A program made the translations under genes and the position numbers. A stretch of 64,000 bases of DNA from TPA_inf: Saccharomyces. Its lineage: Eukaryota. Each line of letters starts with the position of its first letter. Position 1 is the stretch's first letter. Location: assembly GCA_000146045.2 (NCBI GenBank), contig BK006946.2, positions 448,001 to 512,000 of the forward strand, read 5' to 3'. The notes under the pieces are model-generated. The model was not told the DNA's origin. It did no database searches and worked only from the letters and a program-made list of their open reading frames with translations. This document shows positions 12,771-32,923 of this stretch, piece after piece.

Positions 12771-14609
12771 CTATTGATTGTTTGTTCCACGGACTAGGAA
12801 TTCTTCCAATGTGGAATTCTCCATTCCAGCGGTTTTTAATAACGCTTTAATGGAGTTGCATAACTCCGGAGTTACGTTAACATTTAAACGTCTGATCCAT
12901 AGCAAATGACCATTATTTACGATTTTCGATATAACGTGACTATCACCGCTTTGATTGATAACATTTATAAATTCATTCCAGGGCCTTTTGTCCTGACCTT
13001 CCCCTTCCGTTGGTGTGATAGCTTCCCAGACTTGAAGTAGCTTATTCCAGTCTTTGATTTTGGCCAAGTTTTGCAATATTGAGACAATCATGCCTGAAGT
13101 CAACTTATCTCCAAATGTTTGGAAAATGTGGTCTATTGTCTCGTAGAGTGATCTCAATTTTACCCGTTCATCCGCGACCATGGAATTTAAAAGAAGGGAT
13201 ATTACCACTTCATCGTAAACAACTGAGCCATCGTCCTCTGTTTGTAGACCTTTAAATAGGTTCAAAGCTCTGATAATCACCCTATTTTGCTTTACTAGGT
13301 TAAAGTATGAATGACTAGAATGCTGCGTTTTCAAAACCATTTCTAAAAGAGCGATTAGATCTTCCCTTATTAACTCTTGCCCCAACGATTTTTTTAAAAG
13401 TAGATAATCCTTGAGGAAAACACGATCTGAATAAAATTGTGGGTCTGCTTTGTTTAGAAGTATCGCATATTCTAGTCGTAGTGGCCAATATGCAGCCGAT
13501 TGATTTATGGTTAAAAAAGTTGAATGTTCGTCAAATAAGGACTTCCATTGAACAACATCTACTTTCCTCTCTTGTCCTACCAAATCCTTTAAAGTATTTT
13601 TAACATGCTCCAAAGTACGTATATTGTGAGTTTCAGTACCACTACTACTCTGAATTATCTTATTGGCTCCTTTGAAGTCTTCCTTTTGTAGAAAGTATCT
13701 TAAATTACTTAGCCCGTTTGGGTTGATAGTTGAATACCTTCTCCTTTGCTGGGCCAGTCTTCTTAGGCCTAAAAGAATATTATTGTTGCTTGAAATTTCA
13801 TTTACCCCTGAAATAGTAGGGACATTACCTGAATCTATATTTTGGAACTTAGATTTCTCATTTTCAGGTGCATACAGCTCTTCTAAATTCAATTCATTAC
13901 GCCTTCTCTGTGTCAAAATATTTACAAAAATACCATCGACACGACAATCAATCATATACCAAGCCTCACTATTTAAGTCTTTTGCAGAGCATTCAGAGCT
14001 TCTACCTAATAGTTTACTAAGGTTGGATTTTCTTGCTAATCTTCTTTTTCTTCTACTTTCTTGTCGCTCATTAAAGTTTCCTTCAACGTATGCACTACTA
14101 CAGAATTCGTGCTTCAAAAACTTGTTCAACTCTAAGAAACTTTTATGACAATGTTTGGTAGATCTTGCTGTACATATGACCATGAAGTCACCCAACTTAT
14201 TAACGGCTGAAACAGAGTTTGGGCTTTTCTTCCGTAAATCGAAAACCAGGAAGTCATCCAGACCAAGTTTACCAGTTAGGAGGTCTGCTATTTTTCTTAA
14301 TGAGTTTGGAGAGGTTTTAGGTATCTCCAATTCTTTGTTCATCGTGTGGTGGTTATTTTTCTTACCTTCCATTAGTTCCTTTTCATTGTCAACAATCCTG
14401 AGGTACCAAGGTGTTTCCAGAGGGGTAAAAGTAGACTTTTTGGATACACGACTTTGTTCATGACTGTCATTTTTGCCCTTTGTCGAGTAATAAACTGCTG
14501 TGATGTGACTATGAAGAAAATAAGGGCCCTTTTTGAATAATATGGTAAAAGGAATATTGGCCACGCCTATCCTCTTGCCATGGAAAGGTAGTAGACAGAA
14601 TTTATTCAT
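12771..14609 (-). CDS. ATP25: Mitochondrial Atp25 (ATP synthase Atp9 mRNA stability/assembly), 612 aa
   Basis: ORF 12771-14660. I place the start at the internal Met MNKFCLLPF, which gives 612 aa. Confidence 0.8.
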
Positions 14610-15553: not shown

Positions 15554-15625
15554 TCCGTGATAGTTTAATGGTCAGAATGGGCGCTTGTCGCGTGCCAGAT
15601 CGGGGTTCAATTCCCCGTCGCGGAG
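15554..15625 (+). tRNA. tD(GUC): tRNA-Asp (GUC)
   Basis: TCCGTGATAGTTTAATGGTCAGAATGGGCGCTTGTCGCGTGCCAGATCGGGGTTCAATTCCCCGTCGCGGAG. Cloverleaf with GTC anticodon and A/B boxes (GGTTCAATTCC); a T7 run follows immediately. Confidence 0.95.
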
Positions 15626-20444: not shown

Positions 20445-21476
20445 TTATTCATCTCCTGTAACCGAAACTGAAATGGGGGGGTTTGGAAAGTTGTACAAAG
20501 ACATAGCTGTTTTCTTTTTTTTAAATATTGAAGGAACGCTTTCATGTATTTTTTCAAACAATGAGTGATTCTTCTCATTATATTTTTGAATGGTGGAAAA
20601 GAAGGACCATTTGAGAATCATCAGGTACATAGCAAAGAAGCTAAAATTTGGCCACAACGTATCACTAAATTCAATGGTGGCATTTTCATGTACTTGCCAT
20701 AGCATATAGTCTGAGAGCCTCCTATGCCCACTTGTTCTGATTAATAATTCACATTTATTGGAATGGAAACCCATGTACATTTTATTAGTAAATTTTCTTA
20801 TATTAATCCTTGGTGATTTATTTTCCAAATGGTCTTCAACTGAATCACGAATAGTATGTAACATATCATTTCTTGAAGTGTAAGGAAAACATATAAATAA
20901 AGTGAAATCGTCTCCATCCTGTGTGATTTCTTCCACTTTTTTAATTTTTTTTCTCATTTCTGGAGATAGTAAAGATTGATCACCTACTATTCTTATTTTA
21001 GATCCGTATAAGGGATCCTTATAGTCCTTGGCTCTTTTTGCGAATTCATCAAGCTTTACCGTAAACAAATTCATTAGCGTATCTACTTCTTCTTTTGGTC
21101 TATTAAAATTTTCAATAGAAAATGCATAGGCGGAAACACATTTTACACCCAATCTTTTGCAGATATACAGTAGTGTTAGTAACGTTAACCCACCAGCTTC
21201 ATGGCCTTTTTTTACTGGTAGCCTTCTTGACTTGGCATATCTCCGGTTACCATCCATGATAAAGGAGACATGTTCAGGCACTGGCCCTACCCTTAATGCT
21301 TTTATCAAAATATTCTGAAGATTTACATAAAACCATGAAAACAAGCTTAATGACATAACCCACGCAAATACTCTCTGAAATATACTTTTCACTGCGAAGC
21401 ACATCTGTTCTTTGGTTTCTACCAAAAGCCTTTTTAGGGCTACAAACTGAATCTGAATAATACTGGGCATTTTCAT
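20445..21476 (-). CDS. SRT1: cis-prenyltransferase (dehydrodolichyl diphosphate synthase) Srt1, 343 aa
   Basis: ORF 20445-21485. Conserved cis-IPTase motifs (HVSFIMDGNRRYA, ...RTSG). Start at MKMPSII. Confidence 0.85.
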   Translation of the reverse strand: MKMPSIIQIQFVALKRLLVETKEQMCFAVKSIFQRVFAWVMSLSLFSWFYVNLQNILIKALRVGPVPEHVSFIMDGNRRYAKSRRLPVKKGHEAGGLTLLTLLYICKRLGVKCVSAYAFSIENFNRPKEEVDTLMNLFTVKLDEFAKRAKDYKDPLYGSKIRIVGDQSLLSPEMRKKIKKVEEITQDGDDFTLFICFPYTSRNDMLHTIRDSVEDHLENKSPRINIRKFTNKMYMGFHSNKCELLIRTSGHRRLSDYMLWQVHENATIEFSDTLWPNFSFFAMYLMILKWSFFSTIQKYNEKNHSLFEKIHESVPSIFKKKKTAMSLYNFPNPPISVSVTGDE

Positions 21477-21847
21477 TATGGTCAACAGAAACGTCCTATG
21501 TTTGAAAGGCAGCCTGTTCTTTATAAGTTGATAAATTGAGAAAAGTGCACCAAATCTTAATCTACTCTGTGTGTATTTTTAGGTCCCTTAAATAACAGAA
21601 AAAGTATAGCTTTAGCCGCCGAGGTCCACTCAGTTTGGAGTAGTTACCCTTAACAGGCACTCACTCCGTTTTGTTCTTTCGAAGAGATACGTTATAGTAT
21701 ATCGGCAACAAATGATAGGCTCATTGTTAGCGTTCATTAATTATTAGATTAAAATTTATTTAAGTGTATCGTGTTTCTTTACTTTATGTACGAAGATTAA
21801 TATGCATTTAAAGGTATCATCCACGGAAAAAAAATACTCCATCAGCG

Positions 21848-24352
21848 TTAGCGGAAGTTATTAACTACTGTACCGCAGTCTACGCAATAATAGTTTCTAT
21901 CTTGTTGGTCATTAGCACCAGAAAAAGCCTCAAACCTTGAACCGTTACAAACATTGCAACGGATAGGTAAATTCATTGCGCTCGTTGGAGTGGTAGGCCC
22001 ATGTGCATTGGAGAAAATAGATGACATGCTTTCCCTTGGTGTTCTTGGCTGTGCATTACTGCCGAGTGTTTTTAGTGATGTACTGCTTTTGGGACATATA
22101 TTAGAGTATCCACGTCCCGTTGCATAGCCTTTTCCAGTATTAGTATACGCCGCTGCCGGTTGGCCAGCCAAGTTTGATTTCGCTCTCGAGTTGAAGCTTC
22201 GACTCAAAGAATGCAAAGAATCAGAACTGTTAAACCTTCTCCGAACCTCTCTATTGTATTCTTCTAGTTTGAGTAACACGCGCTTTCTTATAACAGAGGG
22301 CATATCTGCTCTAAACACACGAATAGTCCCTACGTTATCAGTACTGATCAATATCGTTCCAATTGCGTCAACGACATCTGGGATAGCACTGGTGGCGGAA
22401 GCATTAGAAATTGAGCCTGGTTTAGAATTGTAGCCCAAAGACGACTCTACATCTGACATTATGCCATCGTCGTTACTCCGACTCAAAACATCGAAACTAT
22501 CGGATGTCTGAAAAAACTCTAGAGATAGCTCGCAGATAACATCGTTAGACAAAGATAATGTTTTCGAAGTTTCTGGCGGTGCAATGCTAACACAAGTAAC
22601 AGGGGCATTGTGTGCATGAAAAGAAATGTAATCCGTATTTTTGATATAATGATCGTTGCTATGATGAGGCAAGGGAAGTAAGTTAGTAAGTTTTAAATGA
22701 TGATGTGGTTTTTCTTCGTTATTCTGGCTGGAAGACCTACTCATTGATTTACTAAATATGCTTCTCAAACTTCCGGACCGAGCCAATCCCTTTGGTTTCC
22801 TTTTAGGTTCGTCTTGATCATTCTCTCTATCCGAAGACTTTAACCTCCAGCCGTAAACCCAATGGTCATCACTACTATTTACAACGATTGGCTGACCATG
22901 CCAGATGGACAATTGTGCCTTGTGTTGGGAAGATCCGCTATGGAAGCCTTTCAATACCTCTAGAAGCTTCCTCTGTTCTAAGTCAAAAATTCTTATCCTC
23001 GAATCATTCGATGTAACTACTAAGCGGAAAGAATTGTCCAGTTGAGATCTAAAAGCTTGCAAACCCGTCACACGTGGACCATGACGAATTTTTGAGTCAG
23101 TTTCCGTGACCATGACGTGAGCGTTTTGTTCTTGTGTTTGTCTATCAGCTACGTGAAATGAAGAAACTGGAGTGAGACCTCTGGTCATCAGAATATGAAC
23201 GTATCCATTAAATGTTCCTATTATAGTGTATTTTCCCTCCTCAGGGGATAATGTAACAGATGTTATTAAGTCTTGACAATCGTACTCAAAGCTAACTTCA
23301 TCATCCAGTATAGACCATAACCTGCATTTGTGATCCAGACAGCCGCTAATGAAAAATCTATCGTCGGTGGGGTGAAATTCCACACAAGTGACAAAATCAG
23401 GATGTATGAATGTCTTAAGTGAATTTTTCCTATCGGGATGCCATAGTTTTACTGTCTTATCCATCGATGCTGACAAAATAAAATTATTTTTAGACCAATT
23501 TATATCCAGAACATCTTGCACGTGTTCTTTATACAGTCGCAAAGGCGTTGGGTGAAAGACAGGCGCATACAAATTCAATAATTTTTCCTTCTCTTCGTAT
23601 TTCTCTGTAGCAGAATCCAAAAATTGTTTTTCTTTTGGATTGTTCAATGAACTGACCTGCTGTTTGATCCGCATCGACTTGGCTCGTGCCTCTTTATTTG
23701 ATTCCGCACTCGAGTCCAATTCGGCTCTTTCAACTGGAGAGCCAATAACTTTCCATATTCTTATTTTACCATCTTTGCTACCAGTGGCCATAAATTTTCC
23801 ATCGCGGCTAAACTTTGTACTCCATATAGCTTTAGAGGTTGGTTCAGATGATTTGGAAGTGGAGGTAACCGTTTCACCTTCGTAGGCCATTAGTTCTTGC
23901 GCGAGAAACAATCTTCTAAATTGTTTCAGGTTTTTCCGACGTTTCAACATTTTAATGTATTTTGGCTCTCTCAAATAGTTTTCAAATTGCTCTGTATCAA
24001 TGGAATTGAAAGGGTAAAACTCATTGACCCTAAGATTCGAATTTAAAGTATTGCCTCTCTGTAAATGTTCCTTTAGTCTCATAAATGAATCAGTGGCGTT
24101 GCCGTTGTTACTATATTTTAATTTGTCATTTGTATTATTAGTTTTTGTCATTCTGAACTTCAATGGCTCGATATCTGCAGAATATTCAAGATTTAGTTTG
24201 CTTTTACTTTTACTTTCACCGGAACTGGACTCGCCGTCGAAGCTCTCTTGATGCGACCGACTCTCCTCTTCAGATCCAGTGGTATTCGAGGAATTGCTGA
24301 ATTCAGAATGTACCTTGCTTATACTTGTTTTATCCTCCGCCATATTCGTCAT
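21848..24352 (-). CDS. YMR102C, WD40-repeat protein of unknown function
   Basis: 834-aa ORF with Ser-rich low-complexity ends and central WD repeats. Length matches YMR102C. Confidence 0.85.
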
Positions 24353-24901
24353 ATTTCTAATTCTCGTACTATATTATACGCCACTACCGTATACAATATG
24401 CCAAGAGCTCAGCAACTGCTTTCTATTCTTTTTCTTTGATTGTCTTTGTTCCTCTTTTCCCTCTTTCTTTTCCTCCTCTGTTTAACAAGTTGGAGAGAGT
24501 TGCAGTCTTGTTCCCTATACGGTCCAGCTGTGACTTGTACGAACGCGTATTGTATCCCAGGAAGAAATAATGATGTAACTCGCTTACGAAGCTTAAGAAA
24601 GGGCAAAAAAAATGTGTCCCCCCTAACTGCGAAAGTGAAAAAAAAAAAAATTAATGCGTTGAATTTACACAGTTCTATGTATAATTAACTGCTACGATAG
24701 AAACTGGACAGTAGTAAGAAAGATTGGACTAGGCATCACCCAGACTTTACTTTTTCGGCATACATATCTATTTATATATAGTTTAATACGTAAATACAAA
24801 TATATATATACTGTAAATTTTAATCATTAAGCTTTTCTTTTTTTTTTGTTCACGCTTTCACCCTGTGAGGCGAATGAGGTTAGCTTTTTCCCTTTACGGG
24901 A

Positions 24902-25264
24902 CTAGGTAAGGCTCCCCATGGCTGAGCCCGCGCAAGGAAATCCAGGATCATCCGCGGAAGAAATAAGCTGCTCCCGGCCCAGACTATGTAAGAAAAGTGG
25001 CAACAAACAGAAAAGCGAATCTTTCCTTTCAGGCAATGCAAGGGTCCTTTGCCGTTTGGCGAATTCCGGTAACCTCGACTTGCGCCCCGCGGGCTTCGCT
25101 TTGACATCCGCGGGTATAAGCGTCCGTCCTTCGGCCGACAACAGGTCGGTCTTTGATCTCAATTCCGTAGATGGAAGAATTCTGATAATGCTGTAAAAGA
25201 AATGAATAAGCAACATAAGTCGTGTGAGAGTTGCTAAAAGAAGAGCGCAGCCTCTGCGGACCAT
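24902..25264 (-). other. Dubious ORF YMR103C (120 aa) within a GC-rich island; probably non-coding
   Basis: Arg/Leu-rich translation with un-yeast-like composition. ORFs overlap on both strands, as expected in GC-rich DNA lacking stop codons. Confidence 0.3.
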
Positions 25265-25419
25265 TCTATTTTCTGTAGTTCTTCTTGTCCCCGTTAACCA
25301 CAATAGTAACGGAGTGCGTATCGCAATCTACTTGAACTATCCATTTTTGAAAATTGCAACCTCTTGCGGCTATAGCTATAAATTCCGTCCGGCTCGGCTC
25401 GGCTTGCTTCGGCTTGCTT

Positions 25420-27453
25420 CTAACTAATGCTTCTCCCCTGCGAAGGAGAATCACCCAACTGTTCGTCACCAATGTACGTCCACCCACCAAACTGCTTTTG
25501 AATACTTGCACTTAAGTACTCGTCCACTACACTATCGATCGGTTTTTCCTTAGTGAACTCTTGATCAAAATTTGCAGTATCTATTTCACTCTTTACAATT
25601 GGCTTGTAAGGCGGAATATAGCCCTTCAAAAGTAGCTTTTTCCATGAGATGTCTTTAAAGAAAGGATGGTTACGAATTTCATCTGTACCGTTAACGCCGA
25701 GTCTTCTGCTTGGGTCTCTGCTTAAGAGGCCAATTAATAGGTCTTTTGCCGCAGGGTCAAATCCATCAGGAAATAGTAGCGGTTGCTGCAGAATTTTCTT
25801 GTACATAACAGGAACGTTCTCATCATAGTATGGTGGCAGCCCTGTCATCATCTCATACAGTAAGATACCTAATGTCCACCAGTCAACTGTTTTAGTATAG
25901 CCCTGCCCCAACAAGATTTCTGGTGCCAAATATTCGGGAGTACCACAGAAAGTGTCTGTTTTGTCATTATCCTTCATGTTCAGCTTGCAAAGCCCAAAAT
26001 CACACAGTGCAATATGTCCTTGGTAATCCAATAGAATGTTTTCAGGCTTTAGGTCACGATAAATGACGTCAAGTTTGTGTAATGAATCGAGAGCACATAA
26101 TAGTTCTGCAATATAAAAACGGGAGCGTGCTAGACTGAATCGTCCCTCGTGTTGTAAATGGTAGAACAGTTCACCGCCATTAATGAAAGCTAATACTAGG
26201 TACAACTTCTCCGGAGATTGGAATGAGAACTTCAACGGAACAATAAAGGGGCAGTCAACTCTTGCTAGGACAGTCCTCTCCGCTAAAGTATGTGTCACTT
26301 CACATTTCGATACAATATATGCTTTTCTCAGAGCCTTCAAAGCGTAAATCTTTTGGGTATCTTTTTTCCTTACTTGCATCACTTTGCCGAACGAACCCTT
26401 CCCGATAACCTTCAATAGATCAAAGTCATCAATGGAGAGAGGCTTGTTCTTAGAAGGTTTGTAGTCCACCGTGATATTTAATTTACCATATCCCCTTTCT
26501 AAAGAAATCCAATGGTGATTGTATAGTCTTATTTGGGCTGCAGAATCGATTTTTAAATTCAAAGGTAAATGGAAGGAGTCCAAATGGATATCCTGATTTG
26601 TATTGATTTTTTTTAAAATCTCCTTCAGTACTTCGTCCTGCTCGCCAATCTCCTGTTGCCAGTTTTTAGAGGGTAAAAGTAGGGATGGAATCCTTGCAAA
26701 GACATCGATTTTTAAAAATCGTAATTTTCTTGTTACATCAAATGTCGATATTTTGTTAAACACTGGTTGCTCCATCGTTCCCATATCTGGACTAATAGTA
26801 GTAATAGAATTATCAAATTCAATTGTAAAATAAAGTAATGGGCTTGAATTTGTTGACCCAGGTAACAATATAGAGGAAGGAATGAATTTAGTGGCAAAAG
26901 CTCTATCTATCAAGCCTTCCCCTGCTGAATCTTGATCCACTCTCTTGTATCGTGGTAGCTGCCGCATTATGGCTGCAACTTCGGAAGCGTCATTGGATGA
27001 TGAAGTAAGGATGCCGGAACTTAGTAGTTTTTGTAAAATAGTAGAGTTAGAGGTGATAGGGAAGGGAAGAGTAAAATCTTTACCAGAATACACCTTCACT
27101 GTCATTAGTCCGGATTCCGAACTCGGTCCCTGCGTCTCAGTAGACGACTGACTAGCTTTCCTTTCGGAAGCCTTAGAATTGTCATTTCCTATCCCCGATG
27201 GATTCTTGAAGGATGCATCATTACGTAATTTTGGAGAACTTAAGGAACTTGGGAGAGTCTCATTTGTATTGATCTTTCTTATATGGTGTTCGTGTTCATG
27301 ATTATGATTCTTCGGGCTACCATCGTGATGTTTTTCTCCATGGTGGAAATGAAACAGGCCATTACCCCACGATTTTTCATTTTCATCTTCACTACTCCCA
27401 TCATCTTCTTTGGACCTTCCTAACTTAAACTTGGATATTCGCCAGGAATGCAT
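25420..27453 (-). CDS. YPK2: AGC-family Ser/Thr protein kinase Ypk2 (SGK homolog), 677 aa
   Basis: ORF 25420-27519. Kinase motifs GKGSFGKV, YRDLKPEN, DFG and GTPEYLAPE, plus the C-terminal hydrophobic motif FGGWTY. Start at MHSWRISKF. Confidence 0.9.
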   Translation of the reverse strand: MHSWRISKFKLGRSKEDDGSSEDENEKSWGNGLFHFHHGEKHHDGSPKNHNHEHEHHIRKINTNETLPSSLSSPKLRNDASFKNPSGIGNDNSKASERKASQSSTETQGPSSESGLMTVKVYSGKDFTLPFPITSNSTILQKLLSSGILTSSSNDASEVAAIMRQLPRYKRVDQDSAGEGLIDRAFATKFIPSSILLPGSTNSSPLLYFTIEFDNSITTISPDMGTMEQPVFNKISTFDVTRKLRFLKIDVFARIPSLLLPSKNWQQEIGEQDEVLKEILKKINTNQDIHLDSFHLPLNLKIDSAAQIRLYNHHWISLERGYGKLNITVDYKPSKNKPLSIDDFDLLKVIGKGSFGKVMQVRKKDTQKIYALKALRKAYIVSKCEVTHTLAERTVLARVDCPFIVPLKFSFQSPEKLYLVLAFINGGELFYHLQHEGRFSLARSRFYIAELLCALDSLHKLDVIYRDLKPENILLDYQGHIALCDFGLCKLNMKDNDKTDTFCGTPEYLAPEILLGQGYTKTVDWWTLGILLYEMMTGLPPYYDENVPVMYKKILQQPLLFPDGFDPAAKDLLIGLLSRDPSRRLGVNGTDEIRNHPFFKDISWKKLLLKGYIPPYKPIVKSEIDTANFDQEFTKEKPIDSVVDEYLSASIQKQFGGWTYIGDEQLGDSPSQGRSIS

Positions 27454-32190: not shown

Positions 32191-32620
32191 TATTATGGTG
32201 TGAGATATATTATTTGTGCATATGTCCTGCACTCTCGTTAATTAGGTTTTCTTCTCTTGATGATGCCCTTTTTTTTTATTCATTTTTTTGCATGACAACA
32301 AATGCCCTGACGGACATGCGGTAATCTAGTTGAAAAAATAGTCAAATTGTGTCGACACTGTAAAAAGGTACTTCCGCTAATAGACTACAAACATTACTCC
32401 AAGACCAGAAACAGAAATACGTTACAATAGTGTTGTCGAATCCTGGCAATGGTAAATTGTTTTTAACGCCCTCCAACTGCTAATCTTTGGTTGACGGTAC
32501 ATTCATCTATTATAAGAACTAAATATATAGATTAACTAGAAAAGGCCAGATGTCTTAAGTGTATATATTTTGAATGAGAATTATGTATGCAGCATATTTA
32601 CTTGAATCTTCAAAAAAAGA

Positions 32621-32693
32621 AGCCCTGTAGGGGGCTCGAACCCCTAACCTTATGATTAAGAGTCATACGCGCTACCGATTGCGCCAACAAGGC
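32621..32693 (-). tRNA. tK(CUU): tRNA-Lys (CUU)
   Basis: Reverse complement is GCCTTGTTGGCGCAATCGGTAGCGCGTATGACTCTTAATCATAAGGTTAGGGGTTCGAGCCCCCTACAGGGCT, with CTT anticodon and B box GGTTCGAGCCC. The oligo(dT) terminator appears as AAAAAAA at 32612-32618 on the + strand. Confidence 0.95.
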
Positions 32694-32923
32694 TACTTAT
32701 TGTTATTTACCGTCAGCTTGTATTCTTATATGTTGAGCTGGTTTTTTATCTCAGCTTTTACTTTCTCAAAGTTAATAAAACTATTCTTCTAGAACTTTTT
32801 TTCTGGATTTCGGTTGCTGAACTAGTTCAACAAAAATATTTATTTTAAAATTAAACTGGTTCAAGGTCTCATAGTCGATCATTTCCAATCAATCAAAGCA
32901 ACCCACAAATCCTAGGCTGAATC

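Follow-up and report, generated by a model that had tools for sequence, protein, structure and literature searches.

The GC-rich region between YPK2 and LAF1 of Saccharomyces cerevisiae as a probable distal Pdr1/Pdr3-responsive activating element

PDR regulon promoters and the YPK2-LAF1 spacer

The pleiotropic drug resistance (PDR) pathway of yeast is activated by xenobiotics or by gain-of-function alleles, and the promoters of its regulon are the described systems that most closely resemble the subject of this report, a GC-rich island in the spacer between YPK2 and LAF1 (YMR102C) of Saccharomyces cerevisiae, studied within a 64,000-nt stretch of contig BK006946.2 (hereafter the window). The sequence recognised by Pdr1 and Pdr3 is an everted CGG repeat, CCGCGG (PMC3091778). 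Documented Pdr1/Pdr3 response elements (PDREs) are TCCGCGGA and the variant TCCGTGGA (bioRxiv 10.1101/2023.08.11.553033, among other sources), and the single-CGG half site TTCCGGAA/TTCCGAAA is likewise bound by Pdr1/Pdr3 (bioRxiv 10.1101/2023.08.11.553033). The YPK2-LAF1 spacer is like the promoters of PDR5, SNQ2, YOR1, PDR3, RSB1 and TPO1 in that it carries the 8-bp TCCGCGGA (in sister species also variants of the TCCGTGGA type), in that both complete and degenerate sites are grouped some hundreds of base pairs upstream of the gene, half sites being close by, and in that the downstream gene is Pdr1-dependent and its promoter Pdr1-bound. However, the LAF1 sites lie farther from the start codon (-606 and -762) than those of the regulon promoters, and they sit inside a conserved GC-rich block of ~290 bp whose sub-blocks are mostly non-PDRE. 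LAF1 itself differs from the other regulon targets in encoding a sterol-transport cofactor, not an efflux pump.

The published record already ties LAF1 to this regulon. The level of YMR102C mRNA falls when pdr1 is deleted, and falls less when pdr3 is deleted (PMC3091778); three Pdr1/Pdr3 motifs and one Msn2/4 motif have been listed for the YMR102C promoter (PMC2903563, Table 3); and YMR102C has been counted among the targets of Yrr1/Pdr8 (PMC12239629). Pdr1 occupies the LAF1 promoter both in data from cleavage under targets and release using nuclease (CUT&RUN) and in the chromatin immunoprecipitation (ChIP) data of Fardeau, and raw ChIP-exo peaks are visible (bioRxiv 10.1101/2023.08.11.553033). 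As the sole canonical PDRE of the LAF1 upstream spacer is in the island, the published Pdr1 peak would be placed there. Very probably, then, the GC-rich core of the island (~24860-25145) is a distal Pdr1/Pdr3-responsive upstream activating sequence (UAS) of LAF1/YMR102C, built as a cluster of CGG-triplet sites for Zn2Cys6 factors. Elements of this kind have been described before, and this one, as the PDRE-bearing UAS of a known Pdr1 target, is itself largely known. The main value of the present analysis is one of annotation, in that an odd GC-rich patch can be explained as the control region of LAF1, co-regulated with drug-efflux genes.

The gene order at the locus is simple. The open reading frame (ORF) at 21848-24352 on the minus strand is 100% identical to S. 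cerevisiae YMR102C/Laf1, whose current name is LAF1; the YPK2 kinase ORF ends at 25420; and YPK2, YMR103C and LAF1 are all on the minus strand. Among the genes called in the sister species the same arrangement is found, with the kinase followed by a spacer of ~1.05 kb and then by LAF1. A sequence-only reading of the window had set a GC-rich island at 24880-25430 between the YPK2 3' end and the YMR102C promoter. Read along the minus strand, that span takes in the YPK2 stop codon, the flank 3' of it and the distal stretch upstream of LAF1. With conserved PDREs followed by a TATA box that faces LAF1, the core would belong to the LAF1 promoter as its distal part and would not be a segment in front of it. 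The features on which the argument turns are as follows.

21848-24352, minus strand: LAF1/YMR102C coding sequence, the proposed target gene of the GC-rich element
24769-24776, minus strand: TATAAATA, probable TATA box of the PDRE-driven promoter, invariant in five species
24860-25145, minus strand: GC-rich core, the probable distal UAS of LAF1/YMR102C
24951-24958, no strand assigned: canonical type A PDRE TCCGCGGA, a palindrome, at -606 from the LAF1 ATG
25031-25047, minus strand: GGACCCTTGCAT(TGCCT), the most conserved island block, with a 12-nt run invariant in five species
25064-25071, no strand assigned: TTCCGGTA (TACCGGAA on the minus strand), which resembles, by likeness only, the Pdr1/Pdr3 single-CGG half site
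25086-25093, no strand assigned: third CCGCGG core, CCCGCGGG, shared by S. cerevisiae and S. kudriavzevii only
25107-25114, plus strand: second, PDRE-like site TCCGCGGG, one mismatch from the canonical sequence

Composition, predicted binding sites and conservation of the core

The high GC content of the island is real, although it covers a narrower interval, ~24860-25170, than the 24880-25430 first proposed. The 300-bp window from 24851 reaches 0.55 GC vs 0.38 for the whole window, a value of at least 0.55 being attained by just 0.14% of 300-bp windows; windows of this size around 24851-25199 peak at 0.52-0.55, with 0.32-0.40 on both sides. Beyond the island, positions 25170-25244 fall to 0.30-0.32 in 50-nt windows, and 25170-25430 as a whole is of ordinary or low GC except for a short tandem array. 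The island is the second-highest GC peak in the 64 kb, and each of the five Saccharomyces species compared below has a GC maximum of 0.55-0.605 per 200 bp at -717 to -790 from the LAF1 ATG. The only higher peak in the window, at 41341-42251 (0.577 per 300 bp), lies at the 3' end of a 1219-aa ORF on the plus strand (38587-42246), which we take to be MYO5 with its proline/alanine-rich tail.

CGG triplets are half sites of fungal zinc-cluster factors. The 301 bp at 24870-25170 contain 18 CGG/CCG triplets, the maximum for the window (mean 3.6), a number that is reached by only 3% of mononucleotide shuffles of the island sequence. The high GC of the island would be due to the packing of many CGG/CCG-containing sites into 300 bp. 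The three CCGCGG sites that had been noticed in the island are present, at 24952, 25087 and 25108, and are the only ones in the window; a count of three in 64 kb is at chance level (mean 2.2), and it is their clustering within 162 bp that is non-random. Two of them belong to a near-repeat, which is an exact CATCCGCGG at 24949-24957 and 25105-25113, although the degenerate flanks first assigned to it were slightly wrong, the copies with their flanks reading T-CATCCGCGG-AA and A-CATCCGCGG-GT. By its motifs the island is a PDRE-bearing element, with a predicted canonical site, TCCGCGGA, at 24951-24958 and the one-mismatch TCCGCGGG at 25107-25114. Taking position 448001 as the start of the window, the former presumably corresponds to ~472951-472958 of chromosome XIII. 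The three PDRE-type sites are presumably the three Pdr1/Pdr3 motifs listed for this promoter (PMC2903563, Table 3), as the counts agree.

Canonical PDREs in the LAF1 upstream spacer are confined to the island copy. In the window at large there are five PDRE-type matches vs 1.4 expected, with the palindromic site at 24951 counted on both strands. The three further matches, all to the variant TCCGTGGA, are at 12786-12793, 21820-21827 and 36747-36754; one of these three is 21-28 bp beyond the LAF1 stop, in the spacer upstream of the minus-strand ORF 20445-21485.

Conservation was measured on a five-species MAFFT alignment of YPK2-LAF1 spacers, comprising S. cerevisiae, S. kudriavzevii (L001), S. 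arboricola (L002), S. eubayanus (L003) and a Logan assembly (L004); S. paradoxus and S. mikatae, the proteins of which fall into the S. cerevisiae cluster, are outside this set. L004, which matches S. eubayanus at 91.6% identity across the first 1800 nt of LAF1, is probably S. uvarum. The proportion of invariant columns changes along the locus as follows, from the YPK2 side to the LAF1 side.

YPK2 coding 3' end: 64.6% invariant columns
25146-25419, minus strand: YPK2-proximal flank, 20.4% invariant columns, with many indels
24860-25145, minus strand: GC-rich core, 45.5% invariant columns
AT-rich zone: 34.2% invariant columns
24520-24669, minus strand: Block B, 68.0% invariant columns
Last 167 nt upstream of the LAF1 ATG: 32.3% invariant columns

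Within the core, conservation takes the form of short invariant blocks split by indels, a pattern typical of binding sites; the runs invariant in five species include AAGGACG, GGACCCTTGCAT, GGATGATCC and TCAGCCAT. At the aligned position of the main PDRE, the site or a one-mismatch variant of it is found in 5/5 species, and the adjoining GGATGATCC is invariant. S. cerevisiae, S. arboricola and S. eubayanus have TCCGCGGA there, S. kudriavzevii has TCCGCGGG and L004 has TCCGTGGA, its single internal change (C to T) having turned one documented PDRE into the other. Judged from the alignment, the conserved PDRE is under purifying selection. The second site presents a different picture. The CCGCGG core of 25107-25114 is present in S. 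kudriavzevii and S. arboricola and lost in S. eubayanus and L004; the latter two species have a full PDRE at -796/-806 (L003 ~4205; L004 ~4195), which aligns to the degenerate TCTACGGA of S. cerevisiae (25160-25170). For this second PDRE the aligned sequences read as binding-site turnover between species. The ACCGGAA within the half-site-like 25064-25071 is kept in four species and is ACCGAAA in L004. The remaining conserved blocks of the island probably bind further factors.

It had been considered that the island might be an ancient acquired segment, or compositional drift and nothing else, and its composition is indeed atypical for yeast intergenic DNA. However, the island is found at the same syntenic position, and can be aligned, in five species that span the genus, and it has over twice the share of invariant columns of the flank beside it (45.5% vs 20.4%). 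The core, syntenic and alignable in the five species, is thus vertically inherited and constrained, which counts against both drift and foreign origin; a functionless segment of either kind is an extremely improbable explanation. The proposal of a protein-binding element has fared well by comparison, with a predicted PDRE conserved in five species and Pdr1 reported on the LAF1 promoter.

Outside Saccharomyces, the closest parallel is provided by the Pdr1 regulon promoters of Candida (Nakaseomyces) glabrata. The syntenic YPK2-LAF1 spacer of N. glabratus also has PDREs, two of them abutting in TCCACGGATCCGTGGA (L006 2120-2135), 116-131 bp beyond the stop codon of the YPK2-like kinase, with the LAF1 orthologue ~870-880 bp farther downstream, and the spacer is GC-rich overall (0.49); however, its sequence cannot be aligned with the Saccharomyces island. 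The N. glabratus gene presumably belongs to the CgPdr1 regulon. The syntenic spacer of N. dairenensis carries TCCGCGGA. PDREs are absent upstream of DGR2, the S. cerevisiae paralog of LAF1, and upstream of the single-copy Torulaspora gene.

From the core to the LAF1 start codon

The PDRE lies upstream of LAF1 and is oriented towards its predicted core promoter. In 5/5 species TATAAATA occurs on the LAF1 strand at -405 to -424 from the LAF1 ATG, ~175 bp downstream of the conserved PDRE. The stretch between this probable TATA box and the start codon is itself unusual, in that a sense-strand ATG is missing for 363-412 nt upstream of the LAF1 start in 5/5 species, the ATG-free stretch beginning beside TATAAATA in each; its antisense strand has 2-6 ATG. 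This arrangement suggests that transcription may start shortly past the predicted TATA box at 24769-24776, and that the LAF1 mRNA may have a leader that is long, and unusually so for yeast. The features concerned are given here.

24353-24733, minus strand: stretch free of ATGs leading up to the LAF1 start codon, probably a long 5' leader
24520-24669, minus strand: Block B, 150 nt within the ATG-free stretch, with a higher share of invariant columns than the coding sequence nearby (68% vs 64.6% for the YPK2 coding 3' end)

These elements allow a model of how LAF1 may be drawn into the drug response. A dimer of Pdr1, with or without Pdr3 (and possibly of the related Yrr1/Pdr8), would bind the everted CGG repeat of TCCGCGGA at 24951-24958, possibly assisted by the neighbouring PDRE-like and half sites (25107-25114, 25086-25093 and 25064-25071). 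Transcription would then start at TATAAATA, ~175 bp downstream, and proceed towards LAF1, so that LAF1 mRNA would rise along with that of other multidrug-resistance genes and carry a leader of ~300-380 nt without upstream ATGs.

Several observations weigh against assigning the core to Pdr1/Pdr3 control of LAF1 and have to be set beside the evidence above. The conserved site of S. kudriavzevii is TCCGCGGG and not the canonical 8-mer, and the N. bracarensis spacer is without a PDRE. The majority of the conserved blocks of the island, such as GGACCCTTGCAT and TCAGCCAT, are without an assigned factor, and Pdr1/Pdr3 would cover only part of the conservation. At ~600 bp from the ATG the PDRE is far away for a yeast UAS, unless the leader is truly long; the support that the ATG-free stretch lends to such a leader is modest, as 2.6-9.7% of the dinucleotide shuffles made for each species also have no ATG, and the species cannot be counted as independent. 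In addition, we infer from sequence both the position of the published Pdr1 peak on exactly this PDRE and the use of the TATA box at 24769-24776.

A bolder extension of Pdr1/Pdr3 control at this locus would give the leader a function of its own. Here the island and the TATA box would launch a LAF1 transcript with a leader of ~330-380 nt, free of upstream ATGs and containing Block B, and drug-induced expression would then pass a second layer of control, a proposal that we hold to be rather unlikely. If it were true, the second layer could be a translational or stability element borne by the leader or, alternatively, an upstream transcript that runs over a separate proximal promoter, in the manner of SRG1 over SER3. 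The invariant runs of Block B include GTAAGCGAGTTAC, TATTTCTTCCT, AATACGCG and GACCGTATAG, and a signal of RNA structure looked for in Block B by folding of the single sequence and of the alignment was not found. The ATG-free stretch and Block B are offered as side observations of possible interest for LAF1 and PDR regulation.

Block B also contains AGGGG (24620-24624, minus strand) and ACGCGT (24543-24548). AGGGG is like a stress response element (STRE) and ACGCGT like an MluI cell cycle box (MCB), and among the conserved blocks CGTATA is like a sterol element; these likenesses have no part in the evidence presented here.

The YPK2 3' flank, YMR103C and RNA structure

The remaining proposals for the island would assign it to YPK2, to a protein or to an RNA. 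On the YPK2 side, the relevant feature is the following.

25146-25419, minus strand: indel-rich flank directly 3' of the YPK2 stop, including a (GAGCC)n-type microsatellite at 25390-25420

This flank is probably the 3' untranslated region (UTR) and terminator of YPK2, as its position suggests. The tandem array that had been described as abutting the YPK2 stop codon exists but is weak: CGGCT x3 at 25390-25404 has a Tandem Repeats Finder score of 30 and TCGGCTTGCT x2.2 at 25399-25420 a score of 44, both below the usual cut-off of 50. The array and the YPK2 stop codon (cta at 25420-25422, TAG on the minus strand) overlap by a single base, at 25420. GAGCC-type repeats vary in copy number among S. 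cerevisiae, S. kudriavzevii and S. arboricola and are absent in S. eubayanus and L004. If the core acted mainly on YPK2, it would do so as a terminator or insulator, preventing transcription of YPK2 from extending into LAF1. The core does lie 275-560 bp downstream of the YPK2 stop and on the same strand, and it is generally understood that bound activators between tandem genes, together with their nucleosome-free region, can act as roadblocks. However, the conserved content of the core consists of activator sites with a TATA box downstream, these predicted sites face LAF1, and the AT-richer, non-conserved 25146-25419 is by its position the more usual place for yeast 3'-end signals. The suggestion of a YPK2 insulator or terminator as the main role of the core was thus not sustained, and we regard it as improbable.

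The coding potential of the island bears on the status of YMR103C.

24902-25264, minus strand: YMR103C ORF, 120 aa, non-conserved, over the UAS, with its ATG at 25264

The ORFs that had been listed for the island, 24880-25107 (minus), 24902-25303 (minus) and 24918-25196 (plus), exist at exactly these coordinates. That YMR103C could be a real, young protein-coding gene specific to S. cerevisiae, with the GC-rich sequence as its coding region, is suggested by an intact, ATG-initiated ORF of 120 aa that is retained at 98% identity across other S. cerevisiae strains, by an array signal that rises 3.5-fold under active Hog1, and by one paper in which it is listed as 'Uncharacterized' and not as dubious. 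However, the start codon of YMR103C is missing in 4/4 other Saccharomyces species, where the region has accumulated 6-10 frameshifting indels per species relative to S. cerevisiae and has stops in every frame. In S. kudriavzevii there is no ORF of at least 50 aa on either strand at this place, and in other species of the set the ORFs at the island differ in frame and strand. With E = 2 in BLASTP, YMR103C and the 134-aa ORF called at this position in L004 are not homologous proteins. A search of 5.8 billion protein sequences placed YMR103C in one cluster containing S. cerevisiae only, and no Pfam family was matched by any of the three island ORFs at E up to 1. Similarity to YMR103C in tblastn switches frame from one stretch to the next, as expected of conservation at the level of DNA. 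At YMR103C itself, a second frame and the opposite strand also contain ORFs.

The Hog1 response is open to another explanation. Active Hog1 induces YMR103C 3.50-fold vs 3.59-fold for the adjoining upstream YPK2, and this near-equality fits an origin of the YMR103C array signal in the YPK2 3' UTR or in read-through. A genuine YMR103C gene is accordingly, in our estimation, quite unlikely. Stop codons are few in GC-rich DNA, and chance ORFs therefore arise on both strands. As the comparison of genomes has it, YMR103C is one of these, a product of chance lying over a regulatory element, and there are sequence-level grounds to treat it so. The opinion of the sequence-only reading that the island is GC-rich non-coding DNA and not a gene was in this respect well founded. 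YMR103C compares with the dubious ORFs or proto-genes of S. cerevisiae in being a short ORF that is restricted to this species, overlies conserved non-coding sequence and is accompanied by other ORFs on either strand, but differs from them in that one paper terms it uncharacterized and not dubious. As a weaker variant of the proposal for a second layer of LAF1 control in the leader, YMR103C may be a de novo ORF that is emerging inside an enhancer.

A GC-rich, conserved and non-coding island could also encode a structured non-coding RNA, as had been suggested. However, the folding energy of the 286-nt core was no better than that of dinucleotide shuffles (z = +0.62 for the minus strand and +1.40 for the plus strand), and the covariation terms given by RNAalifold were unfavourable (+4.64 and +2.08 kcal/mol), many of the pairs being disrupted in one or two of the five sequences. 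A scan of 23500-26500 against Rfam at E up to 10 gave three weak matches, all outside the island, and a tRNA scan gave none in the island. In addition, short invariant blocks split by indels are the pattern of binding sites. A structured RNA is therefore highly improbable as the explanation of the island, and the predicted Pdr1/Pdr3-responsive UAS of LAF1 is preferred. Elsewhere in the window ARAGORN identifies two tRNA genes, both distant and unrelated, tRNA-Asp (GTC) at 15554-15625 on the plus strand and tRNA-Lys (CTT) at 32619-32694 on the minus strand.

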